From NCBI GenBank assembly GCA_005191425.1, contig SUPR01000043.1, forward strand, positions 1 through 28,152: a DNA stretch of 28,152 bases, given 5' to 3'. This stretch comes from Candidatus Helarchaeota ASGARD archaeon Hel_GB_B (GTDB lineage: Archaea > Asgardarchaeota > Lokiarchaeia > Helarchaeales > HEL-GB-B). The position numbers and the translations under genes are program-made. Positions 3,601-23,348 of this stretch are shown piece after piece. The notes beneath the pieces were generated by a model. That model was not told where the DNA came from. It saw only the letters and a list, made by a program, of their open reading frames with translations, and did no database searches. The stretch's first letter is position 1, and every line of letters starts with the position of its first letter.

Positions 3601-5421
3601 ATTTCAACATTAAAAAGTAAATGTAATTTCTGTGATGAAAAAAGTGCGGTTTTTTATTGTAATCAGTGCAAACTGAGTTTTTGTAATAATTGTATTGAGA
3701 GAGAAGAAAATGATTTTTATGTATGTGCAAATTGTAATAGCACCAGAATAAAATCGAGAATTAAAGAAAATTCTTTAAATGGAACAATTTTAGTATGTAT
3801 GGATTGTAAATCAACAAATATTCGAAATGGTAGAATTTCAAAAAAAATATGTCCCAATTGTAAATCAGATGATATCTTAACAATAATTGAAAAAAGAAAA
3901 CAATTAAAACAAGAATTCCAAACAACTATTCAGGATTTTAGATATGGATATTATAAACTGAAAAAATTTCTAGATGATTGTAGAGTACATAAACAAGAAT
4001 TGATAACACTTAGGACCTTGGGCTATAAACATGATGCAAAAATAGAGCATTCGTTATTATGGATATATAACACAGTCAATAAAGTAAAATTAGAAATAAT
4101 GAACCATTTTCAAAAGGATTTTGGTTTTATAAGGTCAAGAATATATCGTTTTATTGATATAGATACCTGGAATCCATTAAATTTTTACGAAATTGAGTCA
4201 ATAATTAATCAGATCAAGGAGAATGTTAATACTTTTAAAAATTTCGTGGATATTTCATTGAAACCCATGATTGCAAATTTAATTGTTTTGAAATCGAAAA
4301 TTAGCGTGATCCAATACTATAAATTAATTTATGATGAATATGAAGAAGAACTGAATTTAAGAATAAATGAATTACCTGTTTGTGCTTTTAAACATATACA
4401 TTTTGTGAAGTTTGAGGACAATGAATTACCACCTAAACGCGGTGTACTATTTATTACAAATAAAAGGATAATATTTATTTATAAAAAGGGACTTATCAAC
4501 AAAGTTAAAGAGAAATTATTTAAAATTGAATTAAAAAGCGTCCAGAATGCATTTATAACGGGCCGTATCTTTAAAAAACTTAAAATTATTACCGATAAAG
4601 GAATTCTGGTTTTAGACGGTGCAAATAAAATTTTAGGGGCGATTGTTCATTATTTAAATATTGCAATGAATTTTCAAAACTATTCCAATGATGATAACTT
4701 TTTAATTCAGCGGCTGGGAAAAATAGATATTGAAATTTCGGATTTAAAAAATAATATTAACAGGTATATTTCTAAAATATTAAATCGCGAAGAGATTTCA
4801 AGAGAAAATTTTATTATTGACAAAAACATAAATAATAGAAAAATGAACGAAATTTTTAATAAAAATATTAATTTTGAACAAAATAATTCCAAAATATTAT
4901 CGAATATTGATAGAGTTTCATTGAACAATCTAAAAAATAACGCACCCATTGTTCCAAGACCTATTGAAACTAATCGAATGTCAAATCAAATGCCCCAAAT
5001 GTCCCAATTACCCCAAATGCCTCAACCAGGTTCTATTAACATAACTATCCCTATAAATCAAAATACAGACGGCTTTAAAATGCCATTTGCGCAAGTGCTT
5101 CAAGATCATGAAAAATATAGAAGGGATATAGAGACAAAAAATGAGAACATAAATAAAAATTCTATCGAGTCCATTTCTCGCAATACTAATATTATACGCC
5201 CTCATTTACATAATAATCCTTCGCAGATAACCACGGCTCAAACTCGCCCAATTATAAAATTATATGAAGATAAATTTGCTATTGAGAAAACATTAGAAAA
5301 TATTGACAGATTATTTAACAGTGGAAAAATTACACCTGAAGCTTATTTTAAACAGTACAGACCATTACAAAAGGAATTATTTACTATAATTAAACTTATA
5401 GAAGAGAAAGAAAAGTATTAA
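3601..5421 (+). CDS. Multi-Zn-finger / coiled-coil / PH(GRAM/GLUE)-like / Vps23 steadiness-box protein, ~606 aa (start probably the non-canonical ATT at 3601)
   Basis: The frame is open from the stop at 3562-3564, upstream of the track start at 3799, adding CNFC-x8-CNQC-x4-CNNC-x10-CANC (six CxxC in total). GVLFITNKRIIF at 4441 is a PH-like hallmark. The C-terminus KLYEDKFAIEKTL...GKITPEAYFKQYRPLQKELF resembles the TSG101/Vps23 core. The CDS itself is secure; domain calls are by eye. Confidence 0.8.
   Translation: MSTLKSKCNFCDEKSAVFYCNQCKLSFCNNCIEREENDFYVCANCNSTRIKSRIKENSLNGTILVCMDCKSTNIRNGRISKKICPNCKSDDILTIIEKRKQLKQEFQTTIQDFRYGYYKLKKFLDDCRVHKQELITLRTLGYKHDAKIEHSLLWIYNTVNKVKLEIMNHFQKDFGFIRSRIYRFIDIDTWNPLNFYEIESIINQIKENVNTFKNFVDISLKPMIANLIVLKSKISVIQYYKLIYDEYEEELNLRINELPVCAFKHIHFVKFEDNELPPKRGVLFITNKRIIFIYKKGLINKVKEKLFKIELKSVQNAFITGRIFKKLKIITDKGILVLDGANKILGAIVHYLNIAMNFQNYSNDDNFLIQRLGKIDIEISDLKNNINRYISKILNREEISRENFIIDKNINNRKMNEIFNKNINFEQNNSKILSNIDRVSLNNLKNNAPIVPRPIETNRMSNQMPQMSQLPQMPQPGSINITIPINQNTDGFKMPFAQVLQDHEKYRRDIETKNENINKNSIESISRNTNIIRPHLHNNPSQITTAQTRPIIKLYEDKFAIEKTLENIDRLFNSGKITPEAYFKQYRPLQKELFTIIKLIEEKEKY
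4987..5028 (+). repeat. Degenerate 9-bp coding tandem repeat (CAAATGCCC-like x4) encoding QMPQMSQLPQMPQP
   Basis: CAAATGCCC CAAATGTCC CAATTACCC CAAATGCCT CAACCA read directly from the sequence. Confidence 0.8.
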
Positions 5422-6546: not shown

Positions 6547-6649
6547 AATTATTAGAATCTTTTTATAATGTCAAAATCATTATCATTTTTTATATAATTA
6601 AGAAAAATATTGGTTTATTTAAATATTTAAAATAATTCAGAGGTGGTGC

Positions 6650-8611
6650 ATAAGAACGAACAATAATGAAGTTCCTCGCATCGGAATTTTTCTATGTCGC
6701 TGAGGTATCAATATTTCATCGGTAGTAGATATTGATAGATTACAAGAATACGCTAAAACGCTGGGTGTAACGGTAGTAGAACAAATTATCTCGCTTTGTT
6801 CTGGACCTGGAGCTGATCTGATAAAAAATAAAGTAAAAGAATATAACTTGAACCGAGTTATTGTGGCGGCATGTACTCCATTGACGCATGAACCAGTTTT
6901 TCGTAATGTTCTTGAAGAGGTCGAATTAGACGGTGGCTATTTAGAATTTGTAAACATTAGAGAACATTGCTCGTATGTCCATATGAAAGATAAAGAATTA
7001 GCTTTACAACAAGCTAAAGAGCTTCTTATGGGTGCTGTGAAAAAAGCCAAATATTTAGAACAGATCCCTAGAAAAAGAATAGATGTAGTGCCTTCTGTTT
7101 TAATCATTGGTGGTGGTGTTGCAGGCTTAAATGCAGCCATGGATTTAGCTAATGAGGGAATAGAAACAATTATAGTAGAAAGTCAACCAACAATTGGTGG
7201 ACATATGGCAAAATTAGACAGGACATACCCTACTGACGATTGCTCAATATGAATTCTTGGTCCCATAATGTTAGAAGTTGCCAATAATCCTCATGTGAGA
7301 TTAATTACATATGCCAATGTCAAATCAGTAGAGGGAAACATTGGTAATTTCAAAGTGGTAATAGAGAAAAAAACCAGTTTTGTTATGGAAAACCTATGTA
7401 ATGGTTGCGGAGAATGCGAAACTGTCTGCCCGATTTATGCTCCTAATGAGTTCGACTTGAATTTAGGCCACAGAAAAGCAATTTATAGAGCATTTCCTCA
7501 AGCAGTTCCGAGTATTTATACCATTGATGAAAAAATGTGTATTAAATGTGGACTTTGTGAAAAAGTGTGCAAACAAGATGCAATTAATTATAATATGGAA
7601 CCACAGATTGAAACAATTAATGTAGGCGCCATTATAATTGCATCCGGGTTCAAAACATTTACTCCAAATGGTATGTATGGATACGGTAAATTTGAAAATG
7701 TCCTGACACAACTAGAACTAGAACGGATTATCGCCCCAAATGGACCTACACTTGGACAACTAATAAGACCTTCCGATAAAAAACATCCAAAAAGGATATT
7801 AATGATCCAATGTGTTGGGTCAAGAAGTTTGAAGACTAATCCGCATTGTAGTTCTGGAGTCTGTTGTATGGTAGCTATTAAAAATGCGAGCTTAATAAAA
7901 CAGCATGATCCAGAAATAGAAGTATATATTGCATATATGGATATCAGAGCTGCAGGTAAAAGCTATGAAGAATATTATCTAAAATCGAGAGAAATGGGTA
8001 TTAAATATGTCAGAGGAAATGTTGCGGGTGTTATTGAACTCCCTAACAAAAATCTGATGGTAAAAGTTGAAAATACTTTAAGTAAAAAGATATTGAATTT
8101 AGAAATAGATCTGGTGATCTTATCGGTCGCAATGACCCCATCAGAAGGGACAAATGAAATTGCTGAAATTTTACGATTGGAAAAAAGTCGGGATGGATTT
8201 CTAAAAGAATATCATGAAAGGTTAGACCCAATAAGTACAAAGATACCCGGTATATATATATGTGGCGCCGTCCAAGGTCCTAAGTCAATTGCTGAATCAG
8301 TTATGCAGGGAAAAGCTGCAGCTTCTCTCGCGAAGATTCCTATCAACAATGGTTTTGTCGAATTAAAATTAATTAAAGCAATAATAGACCAAGATAGGTG
8401 CAGTAGATGTGGGCTATGTGCAATGATCTGTCCATATAGTGCAATTAAATTAGACACAGACGATAGATTTACTGTAAATGAAGTGCTATGCAAAGGTTGT
8501 GGAATGTGCGTGAGCTCATGTAAGTCAGAATCGATTACTTTAAGGCTTTATCGCAATCTTGCATTAGAAGAATATATCGATGGAATATTTGAATTAAATA
8601 AAACCAGTTAG
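6650..8611 (+). CDS. hdrA: Heterodisulfide reductase subunit A-like selenoprotein, ~653 aa, with two in-frame UGA (Sec18 at 6701-6703, Sec201 at 7250-7252 if the start is ATA 6650)
   Basis: One frame runs RIGIFLCR-UGA-GINISSVVDID...CSG...NRVIVAACTP...GGGVAG...PTDDCSI-UGA-ILGPIM...CVGSR...CCMVAIK... to a C-terminal 2x[4Fe-4S] domain. Both UGAs align to Cys in neighbouring paralogs (CHCGINIS, DCALCIL/DCSLCIL). It joins track ORFs 6848-7252 and 7268-8611. RBS GAGGTG at 6640. Confidence 0.93.
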
Positions 8612-8647
8612 ATGAACTCTATTCGTAAATTTAAGGAATAGGGAGAT
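8612..8647 (+). promoter_or_regulatory. Eukaryote-type SECIS element in the 3' UTR of Sec-hdrA
   Basis: A-UGAA-CUCUAUUC-GUAAAUUUAAG-GAAUAGGG-AGAU: AUGA/GA quartet with tandem G-A pairs, an 8-bp helix and an apical loop containing AAA. It starts at the base after the TAG stop. Confidence 0.88.
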
Positions 8648-8673
8648 ACCGAACTTTGCAATTCGGTGGTTTT
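8648..8673 (+). terminator. Small hairpin plus T-run directly after the SECIS (possible terminator or processing signal)
   Basis: ACCGAA-CTTTGCAA-TTCGGT (6-bp perfect stem) followed by GGTTTT. Confidence 0.35.
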
Positions 8674-8733
8674 AAAAAATTATCTTAAATTAATCAAAAT
8701 GTTTAAAGTTAAATTTACAAAATGATGATATAA

Positions 8734-11700
8734 GTGAATATAGGTGCAGTTTGTGTTGTAGGAGCAGGTATTGCAGGTATTAATGCCTCATTAGAGCTAG
8801 CAAAGCAAGGTTTTAGGGTATATCTCCTAGAAAGATTATCACATATTGGAGGTAATATGGCAAGGCTAGACAAGGTATTCCCAACCGGTGATTGTGCATT
8901 ATGTATTTTACATCCAGTAATGACAGAAGCAATTTTTCATCCTAATATAAAAATATATACTAATGTAGATATTAAAGATATTTCTGGTGGACCTGGCGAT
9001 TTTACTGTTAAAATACATCTAAGACCAAAATATGTCAATGAAGAAGCATGTATAGTTTGCGGTGAATGCTCGAAAATCTGTCCAGTAAAAGAAATACCAA
9101 CTAATAATAAAAACAAAATTATTACTCGCTCTGCAATTTATATTCCATTTCAAGAAGCTGTCCCAAACAGCTATGTAATAGACGATAAACATTGTTTGTA
9201 TTTTAAAGACCAATCTTGTAAATTATGTGAAGAAATTTGTAAAGAAAAAGCAATCAATTTTGATGAAAAAGAAAAGGAAATTGGTTTAAGAGTGGGTGCA
9301 ATAATAATTGCTACTGGATTTGAAATGTATGACCCATCTTCATTGCCAAAATATGGATATGACCAATATGAGAATATAATAACAGGATATGAATTAGAAG
9401 GTTTGATTAATCCTTTTATGGGTATTGGAAAACCAATAAGACCATCTGATAAAAAAATACCAAAAAGAGTAGCATGGATTAAATGCGTAGGATCAAGAGA
9501 TATAAAAACAAATAAATATTGTTCCTCAGTTTGTTGTATGTATCTTCATAAACAAATTTCTATTTTGAATGAAAATTACAATATAAAAGCATTTGTTATT
9601 GGACCTTATAGAAATGTGAATGGTAAGTTTTACCAAGAATATATGAACAAGGTCGCTGAAAAAAATGAAATAATTTATCTTGAATATGAAGTTGACTCAA
9701 TTATAGAGATCGAAAATAAAAATTTAAAAATAACCTTAACAAATGGGGAGTCAATAGAAGTCGACCTCGTAGTTTTACAAAATGCCATGGTACCTTCTAA
9801 AGGAGTAGATTACTTTTTTAAATTATTAAATTTAGAGACCAAAGATGGGTTCTTTAAGAGTCCAGATATTTTAACACCTGTTGAAACGGGTTATCCAGGT
9901 ATCTATTTTTGTGGGTGCTGTAAAAATCCAAAAGATATTTCAACTACAATAATTGAATCGGAGGCTGCTGCTTCAAAAGCGGCGAGTTTATTATCTTCAG
10001 TAAAAAATTCCTTTAGAACAGAAGAAGAAATTATTGAATTAAAAGAAATTGACAAGGATTTAGCTCCCAGAATTGGACTAATTATATGCCATTGTGGAAT
10101 TAATATTTCTAATTATATTGATATTGAGGAATTAATAGATCATTTTAGAAGCGTTAAGGATATCGTTTATTTAGAAGATGTCCACCACGCGTGTTCATCA
10201 GAAGTTCAGAAGAGAATTCCAAATATTATTAAAGAATATGACTTAAATAGGTTTATTATAGCCTCATGTTCTCCCCGAATTCTTGGACCACTTTTTATGA
10301 AGGTAATAAGAAAAAGTAAATTAAACCCATATTTATTTGAAATGGTCAATATTAGAGACCAATGTGCGTGGGTACATTCAAATAATAAAAAAGCAGCAAC
10401 TGAAAAAGCAAAAAGTTTGATTTCAATGAGTATTGCTAAAGCACGATTATTAACACCAATAAAATTAAGTGAAATAGTTGTTGAGCCAGCTATATTAGTC
10501 ATCGGAAGTGGCCCTGCGGGTATTTCTGCGACATTAGACATTTCAAAACAAGGTTTTTATGTCTATTTAATCGAGGAATCAGATAAAATTGGAGGAGAAC
10601 TCACTAAATTAAATAAAATTTTTCCAAGTTTTGAAGATTCAGATAAGAAATTAGAAGAATTAATTGAAAAAATAACGCACAACCCGAATGTTGAAATTTA
10701 TACAAATTCCTTTGTTTATGATATTAAAGGTCATGTAGGAAATTTTACAGTTACAATTTCATATAAGAACGATTGGACTGAACTAACTGTTGGTGCAATA
10801 ATTGTAGCAACTGGAGCTGATGAAATTATTCCACGGGGTAGATATGGTAATTGGAGTATTTTAAATGAAGTTATTACTCAATCTGATCTAGAATATCTTA
10901 TTAAAAATGATTTATTGCCACCTCTTGAAAATAAAAGATTGACTATGATCCAATGTGCAGGGTCAAGAAAAAAAATTGGATTTACATATTGTTCTAGAAT
11001 TTGTTGCTCAGTCGCAATTAAGAATGCACTCTGGCTAAAAGAAAATATACCATCACTAGACATTTCAATTTTATATAGAGACATATCCCTTCCTCAGAAT
11101 TACGAGGAATTTGAAGATATTGCAAAAGAAAAGGGCATAAAATTTGTCCATTATGCAGATGAAATGAGTCCAGAAATTGAAAGTATAGATGGAAATCTAG
11201 TAGTAGATTATAAATCAAGAGAAAATAAAAAAGATATGCAAATATATTCAGATTTTATAGTATTGAGTACTTCAATAGTCCCAAAGGAAAATGAAGAGTT
11301 AATACGGATTTTACGTGTAAACCGCGATAAAAATAGGTTTTTAGCTAGTGCGCACGAGAATTTAAGGCCACTTGACTCTCCAACTGAAGGCATTTTTTTC
11401 TGTGGATGTATTGGAGGGCCAGTTTCGGTTGAAGAATCAATAATTCAAGGAAGCTGTGTAGCAATGAGAGTAGGAACATTATTGTCCGGTGAAACCGTAG
11501 AAACTTTCAGTATTGCAGCACAAATTGACGAAGATAAATGTATTGGATGCGGATATTGCACAGAAGTATGTACTGCAAACGTTATAGTATTAGAAGATAA
11601 AGAAATGATAGTCAATGAAAGAATAGAGAAAGATGGTAGACCAGATACCATAAAAGTAAAAAAAGCAAGAATTATTGAAGCTAATTGTCGAGCTTGTTAT

Positions 11701-11796
11701 AAATGTGTTGTCCAATGCCCCGTACATGCTATTTATGCACCTTATTTTACTTTTCCTCAAATTATTGAAATGATAAAAAAGTCTATTAAACATTAA
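8734..11796 (+). CDS. hdrA: Tandem-type (two FAD modules) HdrA-like flavoprotein, 1020 aa
   Basis: GAGIAG...PTGDCALCIL, inserted 2x[4Fe-4S], CVGSR...CSSVCC, then an internal RIGLIICHCG domain, a second GSGPAG FAD module and a C-terminal ferredoxin. Confidence 0.92.
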   Translation: MNIGAVCVVGAGIAGINASLELAKQGFRVYLLERLSHIGGNMARLDKVFPTGDCALCILHPVMTEAIFHPNIKIYTNVDIKDISGGPGDFTVKIHLRPKYVNEEACIVCGECSKICPVKEIPTNNKNKIITRSAIYIPFQEAVPNSYVIDDKHCLYFKDQSCKLCEEICKEKAINFDEKEKEIGLRVGAIIIATGFEMYDPSSLPKYGYDQYENIITGYELEGLINPFMGIGKPIRPSDKKIPKRVAWIKCVGSRDIKTNKYCSSVCCMYLHKQISILNENYNIKAFVIGPYRNVNGKFYQEYMNKVAEKNEIIYLEYEVDSIIEIENKNLKITLTNGESIEVDLVVLQNAMVPSKGVDYFFKLLNLETKDGFFKSPDILTPVETGYPGIYFCGCCKNPKDISTTIIESEAAASKAASLLSSVKNSFRTEEEIIELKEIDKDLAPRIGLIICHCGINISNYIDIEELIDHFRSVKDIVYLEDVHHACSSEVQKRIPNIIKEYDLNRFIIASCSPRILGPLFMKVIRKSKLNPYLFEMVNIRDQCAWVHSNNKKAATEKAKSLISMSIAKARLLTPIKLSEIVVEPAILVIGSGPAGISATLDISKQGFYVYLIEESDKIGGELTKLNKIFPSFEDSDKKLEELIEKITHNPNVEIYTNSFVYDIKGHVGNFTVTISYKNDWTELTVGAIIVATGADEIIPRGRYGNWSILNEVITQSDLEYLIKNDLLPPLENKRLTMIQCAGSRKKIGFTYCSRICCSVAIKNALWLKENIPSLDISILYRDISLPQNYEEFEDIAKEKGIKFVHYADEMSPEIESIDGNLVVDYKSRENKKDMQIYSDFIVLSTSIVPKENEELIRILRVNRDKNRFLASAHENLRPLDSPTEGIFFCGCIGGPVSVEESIIQGSCVAMRVGTLLSGETVETFSIAAQIDEDKCIGCGYCTEVCTANVIVLEDKEMIVNERIEKDGRPDTIKVKKARIIEANCRACYKCVVQCPVHAIYAPYFTFPQIIEMIKKSIKH

Positions 11797-11837: not shown

Positions 11838-12977
11838 ATGGTCAAAGTTGGAAAATTGGAGTTAAATATTGAAGATATAAGTAAATGTTATTCTTGTGGT
11901 AAATGTACTTCTGTCTGTCCGTTAAGTCAAATTAGCGATTTTACTCCAAGATTGATTGCTGAAAATTGGATTTTAAATTTAAATAAAGATGAAATTGTTA
12001 AAGATGTTTGGAATTGCTTAACATGCGGAAGTTGTGTAGAAGTCTGCCCGATGAATGTTAATTTCCCAGAATTTATTAGACAAGCGCGGACTGAATTTTT
12101 AAAACAAGGTATTGGATTTGAAGAGGCACATTTTGGAATTTTTTCAAATATAGCAAGGCTCCAAATTAAAGAAAATTATACTGGGAAATCTAGACACGAA
12201 TTGTATAAAGGCTTAAAAATAAAAGAAAAAGGTGATATTTTATATTGGACTGGTTGTACTCCGTTTTTCGATATTGTATTAGACCGTACATATACAAATA
12301 TTTCTATTAATACTGTTAGAATTCTAAATTATTTAAATATTGAACCTGTAATTTTAAAACATGAAAAATGCTGCGGGCATGACCTTTTGTGGAATGGCGA
12401 TTTTGAAAATTTTAAAAAATTAGCTGAATATAATATTAAAGAGATCGAAAAAACTGGTGCTAAGATTGTTATTACTACTTGTGCTGAAGGATATAGGACT
12501 TTAAAATATGATTATCCTCGACTTGTTAAGCCAATTAATTTTGAAGTTATCTCTTTTTCGGAATTTATTGATAAAAAGTTAAAGGTAAAAGAATTAGAAT
12601 TCCCTTATGAATTTCCCTATAAAATAACATATCATGACCCATGTCGATTAGGAAGGCACATGAAGGTTTATGAGCCACCTAGAGATATTATAAAAAGCGT
12701 CCCTGGAATTAAATATTCGGAAATGCCGAGAAATCGAGAAAATTCATTATGTTGTGGTGTAAGTTGTTGGCATTGTGATATTCTTAAAAAAGTAATAAGA
12801 ATGGACCGTATAAGTGAAGCAGATGAAATTGCCGAAATTTTAATAACAACATGTCCAAAATGTAAAATCCATTTTGAATGTTTATTAGACGAAAAATCAG
12901 AAGATTTAGAAAAAAGATATAATATAAGAATAATAGACCTATCCACATTTATAGCTAAAATATTATTTTTAATTTAG
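11838..12977 (+). CDS. hdrD: HdrD-like / (Fe-S)-binding CCG-domain oxidoreductase
   Basis: Two CxxCxxCxxxCP motifs, then two CCG domains (CCGHD, TTCAEG, YHDPCRLGR, CCGVS, TTCPKC). RBS GAGGT at 11823. Confidence 0.85.
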   Translation: MVKVGKLELNIEDISKCYSCGKCTSVCPLSQISDFTPRLIAENWILNLNKDEIVKDVWNCLTCGSCVEVCPMNVNFPEFIRQARTEFLKQGIGFEEAHFGIFSNIARLQIKENYTGKSRHELYKGLKIKEKGDILYWTGCTPFFDIVLDRTYTNISINTVRILNYLNIEPVILKHEKCCGHDLLWNGDFENFKKLAEYNIKEIEKTGAKIVITTCAEGYRTLKYDYPRLVKPINFEVISFSEFIDKKLKVKELEFPYEFPYKITYHDPCRLGRHMKVYEPPRDIIKSVPGIKYSEMPRNRENSLCCGVSCWHCDILKKVIRMDRISEADEIAEILITTCPKCKIHFECLLDEKSEDLEKRYNIRIIDLSTFIAKILFLI

Positions 12978-12997: not shown

Positions 12998-15900
12998 ATG
13001 GTACTTGATAAAATTAGACGGGAATATATAGGTGCTGTGATGGTCATTGGAGCCGGTGTAGCAGGTATCCAAGCTTCTTTAGACCTAGGTGATTTAGGCT
13101 TTAAGGTATATTTAGTCGAGAAAAATCCTTCTATTGGTGGTCGTATGGCTCAACTGGACAAAACTTTTCCTACCAATGACTGTTCTTTATGTATTTTAGC
13201 ACCAAAAATGATCGAAATAAATAGACATGAAAATATTGAACTCTTAACATATCATGAAGTTTTAGATGTTAAAGGTGAACCTGGTAATTTTACTGTAAAA
13301 TTACTTAAGAAAGCTAGGTATATTGATGAAAATAAGTGTAATGGATGTGGCATGTGCGCAGAAATATGTCCAATTTATGCTCCAAATGAATTTGATATAG
13401 GATTGGCACCCAGAAAAGCTGTTTATATCCCATTTCCGCAAGCAGTCCCATTGGTATATACAATTGATAAGAAGAGGTGTATAGATTGCGGGTTATGCGA
13501 ACGAGCATGTGACGCCAACGCTATTTATTATACCCAAAAAGACGAAACTGTTGAAATTGAAGTGGGTGCAATTATTCTATCAACGGGATTTGATGTGTAT
13601 GATATAAATAAAATTCCTCGATATGGTTATGACTATATAAATGTAATAAGTGCACTTGAATATGAACGGTTGTTGAGCGCATCAGGGCCGACAGGAGGTC
13701 AGATTCTCAGGTTTTCTGACCTAAAAAAGCCAGATAAAATTGCATTTATATCATGTGTGGGTTCTAGATCTGTTAACTCGGGAGTACCTTATTGTAGTAA
13801 TGTTTGCTGTATGTATTTAGCAAAAGAATGTATAATTACAAAAGAGCATTCTCCCGATATTGATTTATATATTTTAAAAAGCGATATACGTGTTTTTGGT
13901 AAAGGTTTTAATGAATTTATTGACCGAGCTAAATCAGAATATAAAGTAAACTATATTAATGGTAGAATTGGGAGTATTGATGAGGATCCTATTACTAAAG
14001 ACTTATTTATTCGCTATGAAAATACTAAATCAAAGCAAAATGAAGAATTAAGGGTCCAATTAGTTGTTCTTGCGGTCGCACTTGTTCCATCAAGTGGCAC
14101 GAAAAAATTAGCTGAAATATTGAAATTGGACCTTGATAATCATAATTTCTATAAAATGGACGATAAACTTGGCAATTTGATTTTTTCTCAAAATGGAGTT
14201 TTTGCTTGCGGTTTTGGAAAAAGTCCTAAAGATATTCCAGAATCAATATTGGAAGGTAGTTCTGTCGCAGCAAAAGCTGCAGAATTTCTAGCTTCTGTAA
14301 GAGGAACTATCGCAAATAAAAAACATAAAATTATTAAAGAAAAAGAAGTATTACCCAACGATCCACCTAAAATCGGGGTAATTGTATGTAAATGCGGTAC
14401 AAATATTGGCGGGATCGTCGATGTTGAAAAGGTAGTAGACCATATAAAAAAAATACCAAATGTAGTAATCGCAACATCAGAAATGTATTCATGCTCAGAT
14501 AGCACAAGAAATAAAATTAAAGAAATGATCGAAAAGTATGACCTTAATAGATTTATTATAGCTTCCTGTTCTCCAAGAACTCATGACGCTTTATTTAGAC
14601 AAACATGCCAGGAAGGAGGTCTAAATGAATATTTATTTGAACTTGTAAATATACGAGATCAATGCTCATGGGTACATATGCATGAACCGGAACTCGCTAC
14701 TGAAAAATCTAAAAAATTAATTGAGATGACTATTGCTAAATCAAAATTACTAAGACCAATAAAAACAATAAGGACAAAAATAAAATCTGGATGCATTATT
14801 ATAGGTGGTGGGATCGCAGGTATGACCGCAGCACTTTCAATAGCAGAGCAAGGATTTAAATGCTTTTTAATTGAAAAAAGTAATACCCTTGGTGGAATAT
14901 TAAATGATATTAATACTATATATCCATCTTTTAGAAATCCAGATTCGTTTCTAAATAAATTAAAAGATAAAGTTAAAAGTCATAGCAATATCAAAATTTT
15001 TCTAAATTCAATTATAACAGATCTAAAAGGATCAATTGGTAATTTCGATGCAAAAATTAAATCTTTGACCGATTCAAAAATAACGAATTTAGAATGTGCC
15101 ACAATAATTATAGCAACCGGAGCTGATGAATTTAAACCTGATGGATATTACGATTATGGAATTGATAATCGAATAATTACTCAATTAGAACTAGAAAAAA
15201 TGTTAAAAAATTCGAATACAATGGAAAATGGAAAGAATTTCTTTGAAAATATTAAAAATATTGCTATGATCCAATGCGTGGGTTCAAGAGAAAAAAATAA
15301 AAGAAACTATTGCTCTAGAATTTGCTGTCTAATTGCTATAAAAAATGCATTATTGATTAAAGAGAGATATCCCTCTCATAATATATTTATCCTTCATCGG
15401 GACATAGTCCTACCTGGAAAAGATACTGAAATGTTATATCGAAAAGCCAGAGAAAATGGAATTACTTTTATCAGGTATGACGAATATAACCCCCCTACAG
15501 TTAAAAGGAAAGATAATAAATTATTATTACAAGTAGAAGGAGATATAAAATTACAATTTGAAATAGACCTTTTAGTATTATCAACCCCATTAATCCCCAG
15601 AGAAGATAATGAGAAGATCTCTAAGATATTAAAAGTCCCCGTTTCTCAAGAGTTGGGTGGATTTTTTCTTGAAGCTCATATAAAATTGAGACCTCTTGAT
15701 TTTGCAACAGATGGTATATATCTATGCGGTTCTGCAAGATTTCCATCTGATATCACTAGTACTATAAACCAAGCATTGGGAGCTGCTTCAAGGGCGGGAA
15801 TAGTCCTCGCCAAGGATAACCTTATAGTAGAAGGCATCATTTCAGAAGTGGACCCAAATAAATGTATTGGTTGCGGGATATGTAAAGATATCTGCCCCTA

Positions 15901-16096
15901 TAATGCAATAGAAATAATCATTACCAAAAAAGTAATAAATAATATTAAAATTTTAACACATCAAGCCCATATTATTAACCAATTGTGTAAAGGATGTGGT
16001 AAATGCGTTGTTTCATGCCCAGTACAAGCTATTACTGCTAAACATTTCACGAACTCACAGATTTTAGAAATGATTAAAACTTGTGTCTCAAAATAA
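12998..16096 (+). CDS. hdrA: Tandem-type HdrA-like flavoprotein, 1032 aa
   Basis: GAGVAG...LDKTFPTNDCSLCILAPKM, inserted ferredoxin, CVGSR...YCSNVCC, internal KIGVIVCKCG domain, second GGGIAG module, C-terminal ferredoxin. Confidence 0.94.
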   Translation: MVLDKIRREYIGAVMVIGAGVAGIQASLDLGDLGFKVYLVEKNPSIGGRMAQLDKTFPTNDCSLCILAPKMIEINRHENIELLTYHEVLDVKGEPGNFTVKLLKKARYIDENKCNGCGMCAEICPIYAPNEFDIGLAPRKAVYIPFPQAVPLVYTIDKKRCIDCGLCERACDANAIYYTQKDETVEIEVGAIILSTGFDVYDINKIPRYGYDYINVISALEYERLLSASGPTGGQILRFSDLKKPDKIAFISCVGSRSVNSGVPYCSNVCCMYLAKECIITKEHSPDIDLYILKSDIRVFGKGFNEFIDRAKSEYKVNYINGRIGSIDEDPITKDLFIRYENTKSKQNEELRVQLVVLAVALVPSSGTKKLAEILKLDLDNHNFYKMDDKLGNLIFSQNGVFACGFGKSPKDIPESILEGSSVAAKAAEFLASVRGTIANKKHKIIKEKEVLPNDPPKIGVIVCKCGTNIGGIVDVEKVVDHIKKIPNVVIATSEMYSCSDSTRNKIKEMIEKYDLNRFIIASCSPRTHDALFRQTCQEGGLNEYLFELVNIRDQCSWVHMHEPELATEKSKKLIEMTIAKSKLLRPIKTIRTKIKSGCIIIGGGIAGMTAALSIAEQGFKCFLIEKSNTLGGILNDINTIYPSFRNPDSFLNKLKDKVKSHSNIKIFLNSIITDLKGSIGNFDAKIKSLTDSKITNLECATIIIATGADEFKPDGYYDYGIDNRIITQLELEKMLKNSNTMENGKNFFENIKNIAMIQCVGSREKNKRNYCSRICCLIAIKNALLIKERYPSHNIFILHRDIVLPGKDTEMLYRKARENGITFIRYDEYNPPTVKRKDNKLLLQVEGDIKLQFEIDLLVLSTPLIPREDNEKISKILKVPVSQELGGFFLEAHIKLRPLDFATDGIYLCGSARFPSDITSTINQALGAASRAGIVLAKDNLIVEGIISEVDPNKCIGCGICKDICPYNAIEIIITKKVINNIKILTHQAHIINQLCKGCGKCVVSCPVQAITAKHFTNSQILEMIKTCVSK

Positions 16097-16136: not shown

Positions 16137-19100
16137 ATGGTCTTAAATAAAACTGAAAAAGAATATATCGGAGCTGTCCTAGTTATTGGAGCAGGAGTCT
16201 CGGGAATTCAAGCATCTCTTGATCTGGCTAATATTGGGTTTAAAGTATATTTGGTAGAAAAAAGGACATCTTTAGGAGGAAAGATGGCACAAATTGGGGG
16301 TAAAACAGCAGCTTTTGATTCTACTTGCTTGAATTGTCTAGTAAGCGACCAATCGAGTACTAAATATCCAACAAATGACTGCTCTCTTAATATCTTTATT
16401 CCAAAAATGGTAGAAGTTAATTATCACGAAAATATTGAAGTTTTAGTATATAGCGAAGTAATTGGAGTTGAAGGAGTCCCAGGAAATTTTCGAGTAAAAG
16501 TCCTCAAAAAAGCTAAATTTGTAAATGAAGAGAGATGTCATGGTTGCGGCGATTGCGCAAATATATGTCCCGTTTCATTTCCTAATGAATTTGAACTGGG
16601 TATGACTAAAAGAAAAGCCATTGATGTCCCTTTTTTACAAGCAGTCCCACTAATTTATACAATTGATAAAGAACATTGTTTAAAATTAAAAGAAGATAAA
16701 TGTGGTCTGTGTAAAAATGCTTGTAAAGCTTATGCTATAGATTTTGATCAAAAAGATGAAATAATTACAGTTCAGGTTGGCGCAATTATTGTTTCAACTG
16801 GATTTGAAACTATAGACCTTGATAGAATTAAAAATTATGGAATTGATTTTAAAAATGTAATTACTTCTCTCGAATATGAACGAATATTAAGCGCTTTTGG
16901 ACCTACTCAAGGGCTAGTAATTAGACCATCAGACCAGAAAATGCCTAAAAAAATTGCATTTATTTCTTGTGTTGGTTCAAGATCAGTTAAAAATGGAGTA
17001 CCTTATTGTAGCAATATCTGTTGTATGTATTTAGCGAAACAAAGCGTTTTGACCAAAAAATCTTTTCCAGATATAGAATGTATAGTATTAAAAAGCGATA
17101 TTCAGGTTTTTCGTAAAGGGTTTAATGAATTTTATGAGAAAGTTAAACATAAATATGGAATTCAATATACGGAGAGTAGGATTGGTTTTATTGAAGAAGA
17201 TCCTATAAATAACGATTTGATTATTACTTATGAAGATATTAGAAATAGTAAACAAATCAAATTAAGAGCTAATCTTGTAGTTTTGGCTGTTGCTCTTGTT
17301 CCAACGCCTGATGCTAAGAAATTAGCAGAAATTCTAAAAATAGATCTTGATAACAACGGTTTCTTTAAAGAATATTCACATTTTATGCCAATTAATAGTA
17401 CTAGAAAAGGTGTATATATATGTGGATGCGCAAGAGGTCCAAAAGATATTCCAAGTTCTGTTATTGAAGGGAGCGCCGCTGCTGCTAAAGTGGCTGAATT
17501 CCTGGCTTCAGTAAAAGGAAAAGAAATTAAAAAGAAGGTCTATAAATCCAGCGAAAAATTGGTCTTACCATTAGACCCACCCAGAATTGGAATTCTAATT
17601 TGTACATGTGGAATGAATTTAAAAAGCGTTTTTTCAATTTTCGATTTAATAGAATATTCAAAAACACTTGAAAATGTAGTGCTCGTAGAAACTAGTATTT
17701 TTGCATGCTCAAGGCATGCCTCAGAACATATCAAAAACCTAATTAAAAATAACAATTTAAATAGGTTTATAATTGCTGCATGTTCAGCAAGATTGCACGA
17801 AACTGCATTCCAAGATGTCTGTCGTGAGGGGGGACTGAACCAATTCCTTCTTGAACTGGTAAATATTCGAGACCAATGTTATTGGGTCCATTCAAATAAC
17901 CCAAAACTGGCGCTTGAAAAAGCTAAAAAATTAATTCATATGGCAGTCGCAAAAGTAAAACTATTAGAACCAGTTAAGCAACGAAGAATTCCAGTAAGAC
18001 CAGTGGGAATAGTAGTAGGGGGTGGGATCTCCGGTATGGTCGCAGCATTATCTATTGCAAATCAAGGGTATCAATGTATTATTCTTGAGAAACGCGAGAA
18101 AATAGGAGCAGATATAAATAAATTTGCTAAATTTATATCTCCTTTAGAAGACCCATATCCATTTCTGAAAAATTTGCGCCTTGAATTACTAAAACATCCC
18201 AATATTTCAATCTACACTCAACATGCTCTCATTGAAATTGAAGGAATAATCGGGAATTTTAAAATTCAAGCAATTTCTCTTAAAGATGATAAAATTGTAG
18301 ATTTCCATGCAAGTGCCATAATAATTGCCATTGGAGCAAAAGAAATTAAACCACTTGGATACTATTGTTATGGGATAAGTCCAAGAGTTTTTACTCAAAT
18401 GGAATTAATTAATATGTTAAATAAAATCGATTCAAATCCAGCTACAAAAGCTCTTATTGAAAGCAGTAAAGATATTGTTATGATTCAATGTGTTGCCTCA
18501 AGAGAAATAGGGAGACGTGGATATTGCTCTAGAACTTGCTGTTTTAATGCTCTAATAAATGCATTGTCCCTTAAGAAAATGTATCCAGATAAAAATATCT
18601 ATATCCTTTATCGAGACATAGTTATGCCGGATAAATATGGAGAAGAGCTCTATAGAAACACAAGAAATGAAGGAATCACTTTTATAAGATATTTTCCAGA
18701 GATGCCCCCATTTGTTAAGTCTGAAGGACAAAAATTGAAAATAAAAGTATATAAACCAGGATATTCTGCTATACTTAATGCAGATTTATTGATTTTATCA
18801 ACTCCAGTAGATGTTATTCAAGAAAATAAAGTATTTTCAAGAATCTTGAGGATACCACACGCTGAATCTATAGGCGGACTTTATATGAAGGCGCATGTGA
18901 AAGTTTTGCCACTTGATTTAAATAGAGAAGGTATATTTATTTGTGGCACTGCTAGAGGGCCCACTATTCTTGATGAATCAATTATTGAGGCTCTTGGAAC
19001 CGCAGCTCGATCTGCTACTATTTTATCTAAAAAAAACCTTTATGACTATGGTATGATCGCTGAAATTGACCCCACTAAATGTATTGGATGTGGGCTTTGC

Positions 19101-19316
19101 ATTAAAACTTGCACCGAAGATGCAATTATAATTACACCTAAAGAAAAATTAATTAACAACGAATTAATTTTATTTGAACAAGCTACTATTATTAATAATT
19201 TATGTATGGGGTGCGGTAAATGTGCCGCTGTTTGCCCAGTCCAAGCTATTAAAGCTAAAAATTTCACTAATTCACAAATAATAGAGATGATTAAGGTGAT
19301 TACCTCTGATAAATGA
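16137..19316 (+). CDS. hdrA: Tandem-type HdrA-like flavoprotein, 1059 aa, divergent (20-aa CxxC insertion; DCSLN instead of DCSLC)
   Basis: Same architecture as the 12998 gene, but with GGKMAQIGGKTAAFDSTCLNCLVSDQSSTKYPTNDCSLNIFIPKM. Confidence 0.92.
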   Translation: MVLNKTEKEYIGAVLVIGAGVSGIQASLDLANIGFKVYLVEKRTSLGGKMAQIGGKTAAFDSTCLNCLVSDQSSTKYPTNDCSLNIFIPKMVEVNYHENIEVLVYSEVIGVEGVPGNFRVKVLKKAKFVNEERCHGCGDCANICPVSFPNEFELGMTKRKAIDVPFLQAVPLIYTIDKEHCLKLKEDKCGLCKNACKAYAIDFDQKDEIITVQVGAIIVSTGFETIDLDRIKNYGIDFKNVITSLEYERILSAFGPTQGLVIRPSDQKMPKKIAFISCVGSRSVKNGVPYCSNICCMYLAKQSVLTKKSFPDIECIVLKSDIQVFRKGFNEFYEKVKHKYGIQYTESRIGFIEEDPINNDLIITYEDIRNSKQIKLRANLVVLAVALVPTPDAKKLAEILKIDLDNNGFFKEYSHFMPINSTRKGVYICGCARGPKDIPSSVIEGSAAAAKVAEFLASVKGKEIKKKVYKSSEKLVLPLDPPRIGILICTCGMNLKSVFSIFDLIEYSKTLENVVLVETSIFACSRHASEHIKNLIKNNNLNRFIIAACSARLHETAFQDVCREGGLNQFLLELVNIRDQCYWVHSNNPKLALEKAKKLIHMAVAKVKLLEPVKQRRIPVRPVGIVVGGGISGMVAALSIANQGYQCIILEKREKIGADINKFAKFISPLEDPYPFLKNLRLELLKHPNISIYTQHALIEIEGIIGNFKIQAISLKDDKIVDFHASAIIIAIGAKEIKPLGYYCYGISPRVFTQMELINMLNKIDSNPATKALIESSKDIVMIQCVASREIGRRGYCSRTCCFNALINALSLKKMYPDKNIYILYRDIVMPDKYGEELYRNTRNEGITFIRYFPEMPPFVKSEGQKLKIKVYKPGYSAILNADLLILSTPVDVIQENKVFSRILRIPHAESIGGLYMKAHVKVLPLDLNREGIFICGTARGPTILDESIIEALGTAARSATILSKKNLYDYGMIAEIDPTKCIGCGLCIKTCTEDAIIITPKEKLINNELILFEQATIINNLCMGCGKCAAVCPVQAIKAKNFTNSQIIEMIKVITSDK

Positions 19317-19734
19317 TGCAATAAATAATAATCTTAATGTTAATATTGTGGCGTTTCTATGTAATTGGTGTGGATATGCAGGAGCAGATTTGGCGGGTGT
19401 AAGTAGATATCAATATCCCCCTTCAATTAAAATAATAAGAGTAATGTGTTCAGGTAGGGTCGACCCGGTATTTATATTAAAAGCATTTGAACTAGGGGCA
19501 GATGGAGTGTTAGTTTGTGCATGCCACCCAGGAGATTGCCATTACATCGATGGAAATGAAATAGCTGAAGTGAGAATTAATAAAACAAAAGAAATATTAG
19601 ATTGGATCGGGATAAACCCAAATAGATTAAGACTTGAATGGGTTTCTGCTGCAGAAGGCTTAAAATTTGCAAAAATAGTTACAGAATTTACTGAAGAATT
19701 ATCTCAACTTAAAAAAATTAAAAATGAATTATGA
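19306..19734 (+). CDS. mvhD: MvhD/FlpD hydrogenase iron-sulfur subunit (all-Cys form); start uncertain (CTG 19306, ATA 19309 or GTG 19348)
   Basis: IVAFLCNWCGYAGAD, RVMCSGRVDP, GADGV..CHPGDCHY and WVSAAEG motifs. The frame is open back to a stop at 19297, and AGGTGA lies at 19294-19299. Confidence 0.92.
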   Translation: MINDAINNNLNVNIVAFLCNWCGYAGADLAGVSRYQYPPSIKIIRVMCSGRVDPVFILKAFELGADGVLVCACHPGDCHYIDGNEIAEVRINKTKEILDWIGINPNRLRLEWVSAAEGLKFAKIVTEFTEELSQLKKIKNEL

Positions 19735-21127: not shown

Positions 21128-21838
21128 ATGATGTTAATTATTCCCGCAATCGATATCCAAAATGGAAAATGTGTACGACTTCTAAAAGGCAATTTAGATT
21201 ATTTAAAAATATACTATGATGACCCTTTAGTCCCTGCTAAATTATTTGTTGAAGCTGGCGCTAAAGCTATCCATATAGTCGATTTAGATGGTGCCTATGG
21301 AAAAGGAAATAATTATAAGATTATTAAACAGATTATTGATTCCTGCCCTGTCGAAATTCAAGTAGGTGGGGGGATTAGGTCTATAGAAAAAGTAGAGGAA
21401 TTATATAGTTTAGGTGTTGAACGTATTATATGCGGTACTGCAGCTATTAATAACCCAGAATTTGTTCGAGATGTCGTTGATTTAATTGGTCCAAAACATA
21501 TAATGATTGCCTTAGACCATAGAAATGGAGAACTGCTAACGCATGGCTGGCAAGAAAATACTAAATTAAATGTATTTGAAATTGCAAAAGAAATTGAAAG
21601 AAATGGCGCGGGGTTCATTTTATTTTCGTCTGCAGATGTAGACGGAACACTTTTAGGCCCAGATATTAAAAATACACGAAAAATGGTAAATTCAATTAAA
21701 ATTCCAGTCATAGCTGCAGGTGGGATAAGCTCTATAAAGGATATTTCGGAAATAGAAAAAACAGGCGTCTATGGAGTTGTGATTGGTAAAGCAATTTATG
21801 AAAAAAATATAAATTTAAAAGAACTTTTAAAAAAGTGA
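21128..21838 (+). CDS. hisA: ProFAR isomerase
   Basis: IIPAIDIQNGKCVRL, HIVDLDGA, QVGGGIRS, DVDGTLLGPD and AAGGIS motifs. Confidence 0.95.
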   Translation: MMLIIPAIDIQNGKCVRLLKGNLDYLKIYYDDPLVPAKLFVEAGAKAIHIVDLDGAYGKGNNYKIIKQIIDSCPVEIQVGGGIRSIEKVEELYSLGVERIICGTAAINNPEFVRDVVDLIGPKHIMIALDHRNGELLTHGWQENTKLNVFEIAKEIERNGAGFILFSSADVDGTLLGPDIKNTRKMVNSIKIPVIAAGGISSIKDISEIEKTGVYGVVIGKAIYEKNINLKELLKK

Positions 21839-21844
21839 AGAATT

Positions 21845-22657
21845 ATGCCATTAGCAAAAAGAATAATACCTTGTCTTGATATGACTGAAGGACGAGTCGT
21901 TAAGGGAATTAAATTTGTAAATATTCGAGATGCTGGCGACCCTGTAGAACTAGCAGTTCTTTATGATTCCCAAAATGCTGATGAAATTGTGTTTTTAGAT
22001 ATTACAGCATCCTCTGATAAAAGAAATATTTTATTAAATATTGTATCTAGAACCGCTAATAATCTATCAATTCCTTTTACAGTTGGTGGCGGCCTGAGAA
22101 ATTTAGATGACATCAGGTCAGTCCTTGCAACAGGAGCTGACAAAGTTTCTATTAATACTGCAGCTGTAAAAGACCCCAATTTAATTAAAGAATCATCTGA
22201 AATGTTCGGTAGCCAATGTATCGTCCTAGCTATTGACGCTAAAAGGCGCACCCCAAATAGAGAACTTGACAATGATAAGATAATAATAGAAACACCAGAA
22301 GGTGAATTTTGGTGGGAAGTAGTAATATATGGCGGCAGAAAACCTACAGGTATTGATGCTATTAAATGGGCAATTAAAGGACAAGAACTAGGAGCTGGTG
22401 AAATACTCTTAACAAGTATGGACAGAGATGGAACTAAACAGGATTTCGATATTCCCCTCACCAAAGCTATTTCTAGCCGAATTAAAATACCAGTTATCGC
22501 TTCAGGCGGAGCAGGAACATTAGAACATATCTATAACGCTTTTAAATATGGTGGTGCAAGTGCAGCTCTTGCTGCAAGCATATTTCACTATGGAGAATAC
22601 ACAGTACAAGATGTAAAAATGTATTTAAAAAATAAAGGAATAAATGTAAGGTTATAA
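21845..22657 (+). CDS. hisF: Imidazole glycerol phosphate synthase cyclase subunit
   Basis: [10 protein letters not shown]...[39 protein letters not shown] and PVIASGGAG motifs. Confidence 0.97.
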
Positions 22658-22805
22658 CATAATTTATTATGTTAATTTTAAATCTTTAATAGAAATTCTT
22701 TTGAAATTAAGTACAAAATTCAATTCAAAAAAATTGATCCAAATTATTAAATATAAAAATCAATTAATTTTTTACAAAAACCTTGTGTTAATGAGGTACG
22801 AAAAA

Positions 22806-23348
22806 ATGTCGGCATATGTCTTAAAAGTCGTAATTGCTGGTGAAGGTAGTGTCGGAAAAACATCATTACTTATGAGGTTTACCAAGGGAATTTTTATTGA
22901 AAACACCAAAATGACAATAGGAGTAGATTTCTCTGCTGTTAAAATTAGGGCTAGTACCTCATTAGGCGAAAAAGTGATAACATTACAAATTTGGGATTTT
23001 GGTGGGGAAGAACGGTTTCGTTTTATTTTGCCAGGTTATGTTGTCGGTGCATCCGGAGCTATTTTATGCTTTGACCTTACAAAACCGAGCACTCTTGAAA
23101 GTCTACCAGAATGGATTGAACTTATACGTTCAAAAGTACCAGATATCCCTATTATTCTAGTTGGTACTAAAAGTGATTTGGTCGAATATAGAAAAGTTGA
23201 CCACGATGTTGCTGAACAAAAAGTTAAAGAATGGGGTCTATCAGGATATATTGAAGTATCTTCAAAAAGCGGCGATAATATAGGCTATGTTTTCGGGTTA
23301 TTAAGTCAAGAAATGTTAATGAAAATTGAGAAAAACAAACCAGTATAA
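22806..23348 (+). CDS. Rab/Ras-like small GTPase, ~180 aa (likely start ATG 22806, not the track TTG 22701)
   Basis: G1 GEGSVGKT, G2 TIGVDF, G3 WDFGGE, G4 TKSD, G5 SSK. GAGGT RBS at 22793. No C-terminal Cys. Confidence 0.92.
   Translation: MSAYVLKVVIAGEGSVGKTSLLMRFTKGIFIENTKMTIGVDFSAVKIRASTSLGEKVITLQIWDFGGEERFRFILPGYVVGASGAILCFDLTKPSTLESLPEWIELIRSKVPDIPIILVGTKSDLVEYRKVDHDVAEQKVKEWGLSGYIEVSSKSGDNIGYVFGLLSQEMLMKIEKNKPV

Follow-up and report, generated by a model that had tools for sequence, protein, structure and literature searches.

Both in-frame TGA codons of an intact hdrA gene almost certainly encode selenocysteine (Sec). The gene lies in a 28,152-nt stretch, contig C122 (the window, by which the whole stretch is meant throughout), and its host genome is 3.5 Mb in size, 94% complete, and has a G+C content of about 31%. 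The reading frame extends from position 6623 to a TAG stop and is uninterrupted except for the two TGA codons (Table 1), the first of which occurs in the context F-L-C-R-TGA-G-I-N-I-S and the second in D-D-C-S-I-TGA-I-L-G-P. An earlier note, made from the letters of the DNA, had placed these codons in a single continuous HdrA frame. This placement was confirmed by the translation and by the matches of the read-through product to HdrA proteins of solved structure: 9sfi_A, the HdrA of M. maripaludis, matched over residues 18-657 with an E-value of 7.6e-210, and 5odc_A, the Cys form from M. thermolithotrophicus, matched with an E-value of 5.3e-206, both of them end to end.

The Pfam domains Pyr_redox_2, FAD, and Fer4 were identified in the product, and the HdrA domain set was present, including the N-terminal Cys domain, the FAD-binding thioredoxin-reductase-like domain, the inserted and the C-terminal 2x[4Fe-4S] ferredoxin domains, and the C...CC motif. 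In the alignment, the invariant Cys columns were kept (including C388, C400, and C405/C406), and the cofactor motifs were all intact. The NCBIfam HdrA2 model (NF040770) gave a score of 762 bits, below its equivalog cut-off of 1100, and two further HdrA equivalog models also scored below theirs (646 versus 1300 bits and 633 versus 1400 bits); these methanogen HdrA/HdrA2 models span about 770 positions, of which only those up to about 640 were matched. Because the equivalog cut-offs were missed, the protein is assigned to the HdrA family, and identity with the CoM-S-S-CoB enzyme is not implied. The public gene calls hold precisely the two pieces that the earlier note had expected from standard pipelines, namely a 447-aa fragment (7268-8608) and a 134-aa fragment (6848-7249).

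Table 1. Positions of the hdrA gene, its decoding signals, neighboring genes, and the tRNA-Sec gene (window coordinates unless a contig is named)
Feature	Position	Strand	Basis or remark
hdrA CDS	6650..8611	+	653 codons, with putative Sec18 and Sec201; ATA start inferred
Shine-Dalgarno-like GAGGTG	6640..6645	+	Read directly; 4 nt upstream of ATA
UGA 1, predicted Sec18	6701..6703	+	Matches Cys13 in 5ODC HdrA, where the N-terminal C-x-C-G has its second Cys
UGA 2, predicted Sec201	7250..7252	+	Canonical Sec position of HdrA; equals Sec197 in M. maripaludis 9SFI and Cys197 in 5ODC
hdrA stop TAG	8609-8611	+	Translation
Loki-type SECIS	8599..8674	+	Minimum-free-energy fold, z = -2.68
SECIS helix 1	8599-8605 paired with 8668-8674	+	Outer helix; includes last hdrA codons
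SECIS AUGA core	8612-8615	+	Directly after the TAG stop
SECIS helix 2	8617-8624 paired with 8636-8643	+	
SECIS apical loop	8625-8635	+	11 nt, with AAA
SECIS 3' GA	8645-8646	+	
SECIS extra hairpin	8648-8667	+	3' of GA
Fused double-HdrA genes	8734-11796, 12998-16096, 16137-19316	+	Pfam, domain order, motifs
HdrB/C-like CCG-domain gene	11838-12977	+	Pfam
Cys-type MvhD/FlpD gene	19348-19734	+	Cys at the VhuD Sec positions in the translation
tRNA-Sec	C9:14938-15125 (L018)	+	Found by eye; hand-placed splice sites

Conservation of the two TGA codons

Both TGA codons had been proposed to pair with Cys, and each fell in an invariant Cys column in an alignment of 11 paralogues and orthologues. The second codon was aligned with X (Sec) in 9sfi_A and with Cys197 in 5odc_A. 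The paralogue motifs quoted in support of that proposal (ICHCGINIS, VCKCG, and ICTCG for the first site; DCALC and DCSLC for the second) were located in the three large ORFs downstream of the gene.

Orthologs were compared for an alternation of TGA and TGY, as the earlier note had suggested. Of 151 sampled genomes of the class, 130 had a strong HdrA match, and among the best loci the gene could be read in 29. TGA was found at both columns in every one of these 29 best relatives with a readable gene, down to an identity of about 53%. A third TGA occurred at the C50-equivalent column in 13 of the 29 loci and at the C75-equivalent column (A-A-C-T-P) in one of them (loci L047-L067); in relatives with an extra TGA, Sec is possible at three of the conserved Cys of the N-terminal cluster domain. 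Within the genome itself, four HdrA paralogues have TGA at both columns and three have Cys codons (TGY). The sister species G001 has three paralogues with TGA at the same two columns, and its Cys-type paralogues likewise have TGY.

The substitution pattern was analyzed against the same-genus orthologue, which is 80% identical. Between the two TGA codons, 35, 18, and 93 differences were counted at codon positions 1, 2, and 3, respectively, with 77 synonymous and 32 non-synonymous codon changes; the corresponding counts after the second TGA were 87, 47, and 220. The third-position bias between the TGA codons is thus the signature of a translated, constrained sequence. Additionally, Logan contigs from four metagenome studies cover the TGA codons with zero variants or indels, where run X1, one of the four sources, may be the source sample itself. 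Among the sequencing runs listed for the stretch, none was of RNA. Contigs of runs X1, X2, and X4 show the first TGA intact, and those of X1, X2, X4, and X6 the second, while four of the five SNPs seen in the Logan contigs were at third codon positions. The identical letters in independent contigs of four studies answer the earlier concern that the TGA codons might be sequence errors. Since TGA also terminates six of the 20 ORFs of the window, the genetic code is not reassigned.

Decoding signals and Sec machinery

A SECIS element of the Loki type was found at the end of the gene (Table 1), with a minimum-free-energy fold that was computed on positions 8598-8682. Its stem has nine positions, including one A-A and eight Watson-Crick or GU pairs, and its apical loop reads GUAAA, compared to the AAAAA typical of Loki. 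The element begins 1.9 kb downstream of UGA 6701 and 1.4 kb downstream of UGA 7250. The same layout was observed after the other three Sec-HdrA genes of the genome, the orthologues in G001, and the two-Sec VhuD genes, and the stems vary in sequence across these genes while their complementarity is kept. No such element was found for the three Cys-type HdrA genes of the genome.

A loose SECIS pattern, with 152 matches in the genome versus about 70 in shuffles, was unspecific in this AT-rich genome and was rejected; a strict pattern was therefore used in its place. The strict pattern matched nine sites in the genome versus about one per shuffled genome, and six of the nine were located just after ORFs with at least two in-frame TGA codons. 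The window contains exactly one such site, at 8612. No SECIS family was matched by cmscan on contig C9 and the window. In MAFFT alignments of the SECIS elements, the stems came out of register.

Further SECIS elements were observed in the genome and its sister species. Each Sec-hdrA and each Sec-vhuD has a SECIS element of its own (L021:2155-2196 and 2667-2707; L023:3457-3500 and 4053-4094; L025:1444-1486), and all SECIS elements of the genome have a further GC-rich hairpin, which separates the 3' GA from the outer helix. In the G001 orthologue (L032:1458-1498, minus strand), the gene ends on the UGA that is part of the SECIS AUGA core, an arrangement that has been published for Loki VhuU. Another element (L039:940-982, contig C54, minus strand) is located after a gene in which two TGA codons stand next to each other in frame (G-C-U-U) and which may be of the two-Sec Prx-like type of Mariotti et al.

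The start of the gene is less conventional. The earlier note had given its extent as 6650 to 8611, for which the frame was upheld, whereas the codon at 6650 is ATA and a canonical start is lacking: the stretch from the TAA at 6620 to the first TGA has no in-frame ATG, GTG, or TTG. Conservation in two species indicates that this ATA is most likely the initiation codon. L032, the same-genus orthologue, has the sequence GAGGTGGTGCATAAGAACG without any change, and GAGGTGGTGC-ATA-AGA-ACG is common to the window gene and the sister species G001. In L032, the orthologue from G001, an in-frame TAG is present three codons before the conserved ATA, and in the same-order orthologue L040, GGAGGTG is followed by 3 nt and then by ATG AGA ACG at the matching place. 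It is because of the shared Shine-Dalgarno-ATA stretch, the upstream TAG of L032, and the ATG of L040 at the same place that ATA is taken as the start. The codon is covered in the Logan contigs of two of the four studies without an indel. The out-of-frame ATG at 6666, combined with a 1-nt indel, was also considered as the true start and was rejected, as the sister-species orthologue does not have this ATG and the independent contigs that cover the stretch are free of indels.

A search for the Sec machinery, proposed in the earlier note as a check on the reading, identified SelB, SepSecS, SelD, a PSTK-like gene, and a tRNA-Sec that required splicing by hand. SepSecS (482 bits) and SelB (276 bits) scored above their curated cut-offs and are adjacent on contig C9. 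The PSTK-like gene is 14 kb beyond them, with an E-value of 1e-45 and a score of 156 bits, below the curated cut-off of 290. SelD is on contig C31 (7806-8315; L003), where the contig end truncates it; an in-frame TGA occurs in this gene as well.

The tRNA-Sec gene has a 9-bp acceptor stem and the discriminator G73, and its CCA is encoded. The anticodon stem, with UCA, is 6 bp long, the T stem 4 bp, and the variable arm is long. The gene is apparently interrupted by three inserts: the D loop has one of about 46 nt, position 37/38 one of 24 nt, and the T loop one of about 27 nt. The hand-spliced sequence was called as tRNA-SeC by ARAGORN. It was missed by ARAGORN on the unspliced DNA, with and without introns, by Rfam RF01852 on the genome and cmscan on C9, and by a strict structure scan; these tools missed it because of the introns. 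In G001, the exons of the tRNA-Sec are nearly identical while the inserts of the D loop and the anticodon loop diverge, and the tRNA-Sec of a relative in another family is without the T-loop insert. The three inserts differ from the Loki tRNA-Sec reported previously, which has one T-loop intron (Mariotti et al., 2016; PMC4989117).

Alternative readings of the frame

The fragments in the public annotations are exactly what would be expected if only a shortened HdrA that lacks the N-terminal domain were made, with termination at UGA 6701, UGA 7250, or both, and a restart at TTG 6848 or ATG 7268; the missing canonical start ahead of the first TGA would also agree with this. However, the 17 codons before the first TGA encode the conserved R-I-G-I-F-L-C-R of the family, the segment between the TGA codons evolves with a third-position bias, and the SECIS is conserved class-wide together with both TGA codons. 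The 447-aa product would also be without the FAD-binding GxGxxG fold and the Cys197-equivalent. A shortened product is therefore very unlikely. The same lack of a canonical start, along with two in-frame stops, could be read as a decaying pseudogene or as assembly errors, but such an origin is scarcely credible for a gene that shows the substitution pattern of purifying selection and retains all of its cofactor motifs, while the same two TGA codons recur in all 29 relatives down to about 53% identity and the contigs of four studies agree without indels.

A residue other than Sec, such as Cys or Trp, might be inserted at the UGA codons without any part played by the SECIS, either by a suppressor tRNA or through near-cognate decoding, and sequence tools cannot tell which residue is inserted. 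This is nevertheless very improbable given the complete Sec pathway and the SECIS, and given that UGA is placed only at Cys columns and serves as an ordinary stop elsewhere in the window. Overall, an intact hdrA of a Loki-type Asgard archaeon in which both UGA codons are read as Sec appears to be the best explanation, with an estimated probability of about 0.9.

Relation to known HdrA proteins and the N-terminal cluster

The reading is correct but ordinary: the gene belongs to a known type that was described in 2016 and catalogued by the hundreds in 2024. In Loki HdrA, Sec can occupy five positions, with no more than four of them in one protein (Mariotti et al., 2016; PMC4989117). In the supplement of the 2024 Asgard selenoproteome (PMC11227280), where X denotes Sec, the N-terminal motif occurs as CRXG (175), CQXG (131), CHXG (23), CAXG (12), and CDXG (4), and 41 AAXTP strings are additionally included; the exact string FLCRXGINIS was not found in this supplement. 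Whether a Sec in the N-terminal motif had been published, which was left as a question in the earlier note, can hence be answered positively from PMC4989117 and from more than 340 HdrA sequences in the PMC11227280 supplement. At the D-C-x-x-U site, named in the note as the classic one, the codon at 7250 corresponds to Sec197 of 9SFI, and Sec-HdrA of Loki, also mentioned there, is reported in PMC4989117.

The gene resembles the Asgard multi-Sec HdrA in its family and type of lineage, in having a Sec at the D-C-x-x-U site plus an N-terminal Sec, and in its eukaryote-like SECIS with an AUGA/GA core, a stem of about nine positions, an 11-nt loop, and a reach of about 2 kb. As in the reported Loki hdrA, the stop codon is TAG and not TGA. 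The element fits the lokiSECIS described in PMC4989117 and the G-U-A-A-A loop variant of PMC11227280. There are differences as well. The published Loki hdrA genes are described as invariably having vhuD/frhD after them and sharing a single SECIS, placed behind the second gene (PMC4989117), a tandem that is present in "almost all" cases according to PMC11227280; this regularity concerns the gene neighborhood and does not define the protein. In contrast, the window gene has no vhuD after it, and its SECIS abuts hdrA's own stop. The probable start codon, ATA, is a further difference from the published Asgard multi-Sec hdrA.

Among methanogens, the Sec-HdrA (VhuHdr) of Methanococcales and Methanopyrus is about 50% identical along its whole length and has the same arrangement of four domains, with Sec201 corresponding to Sec197/Cys197. 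The methanogen protein has a single Sec, Cys at C-x-C-G, and a SECIS of the archaeal type, whereas the window gene has two predicted Sec and a Loki-type SECIS. The two-Sec VhuD/MvhD proteins of the same genome have SECIS elements of the same architecture, but differ from HdrA in their FlpD fold and [2Fe-2S] cluster.

The neighborhood of the gene is rich in further hdr genes (Table 1). In place of a tandem vhuD/frhD sharing the SECIS, which is absent, the next gene is the first of three fused double HdrAs, and the sole MvhD in the window is of the Cys type. In the fused double HdrAs, the first half is without the N-terminal domain while the second half has it, and they bring to mind the HdrAs of ANME and Moorella, which are complementary and occur in tandem or fused. 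The third one reads N-D-C-S-L-N and is without the Cys197-equivalent residue. The hdr cluster is flanked by a Vps23-core (ESCRT-I-like) protein (3799-5421) and a Ras/Roc-family small GTPase (22701-23348), both of which are typical eukaryote-signature proteins of Asgard archaea and place the genome in this group, and hisA/hisF are located at 21128-22657.

From these comparisons of sequence, we infer Sec insertion, the use of the ATA start, and the biochemical role of the product. The hdrA gene would encode the flavin and iron-sulfur subunit of an electron-bifurcating complex of the heterodisulfide-reductase type. Translation would start at the ATA behind the Shine-Dalgarno site, and Sec-tRNA(Sec), carried by the archaeal SelB/EFSec, would be inserted at UGA 6701 as Sec18 and at UGA 7250 as Sec201, with the insertion signaled by the eukaryote-like SECIS directly after the TAG.

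HdrA forms dimers. According to Chadwick et al. (2022), who summarize the crystal structure, Cys197 of one HdrA provides the fourth ligand to the partner's N-terminal [4Fe-4S] cluster, whereas in the 2026 structure from M. maripaludis, Sec197 is part of a Cys-Sec feature between that cluster and the FAD in one state. The 2016 paper (PMC4989117), which predates the structure of 2017, considered the Sec positions not to be cluster ligands, and it is still a matter of debate what the mobile N-terminal [4Fe-4S] cluster does in electron bifurcation (PMC13518236). A literature search on the identities of the ligands of the N-terminal cluster (Cys11/13/46/71) found nothing relevant. Sec18 lies within the four-Cys motif of the N-terminal domain. 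As this domain has four invariant Cys, three of which must ligate, Sec18 probably ligates the same cluster as Sec201. We give even odds to the combined reading in which Sec201 and the partner's Sec18 would place two selenolates on one interface [4Fe-4S] cluster (three in relatives with extra Sec at the C50- and C75-equivalent columns) and translation would begin at ATA.

A multi-Sec HdrA with an N-terminal Cys-x-Sec-Gly is the norm in the class and has already been published, so that the gene adds little to the biology in this respect. Its added value is in an hdrA that has its own SECIS without a vhuD partner, in a conserved ATA start, and in Sec positions that map on cluster ligands. The window gene and three paralogues in the genome are split in the public gene calls, and as a result intact HdrA proteins are under-counted and the N-terminal cluster domain is hidden.
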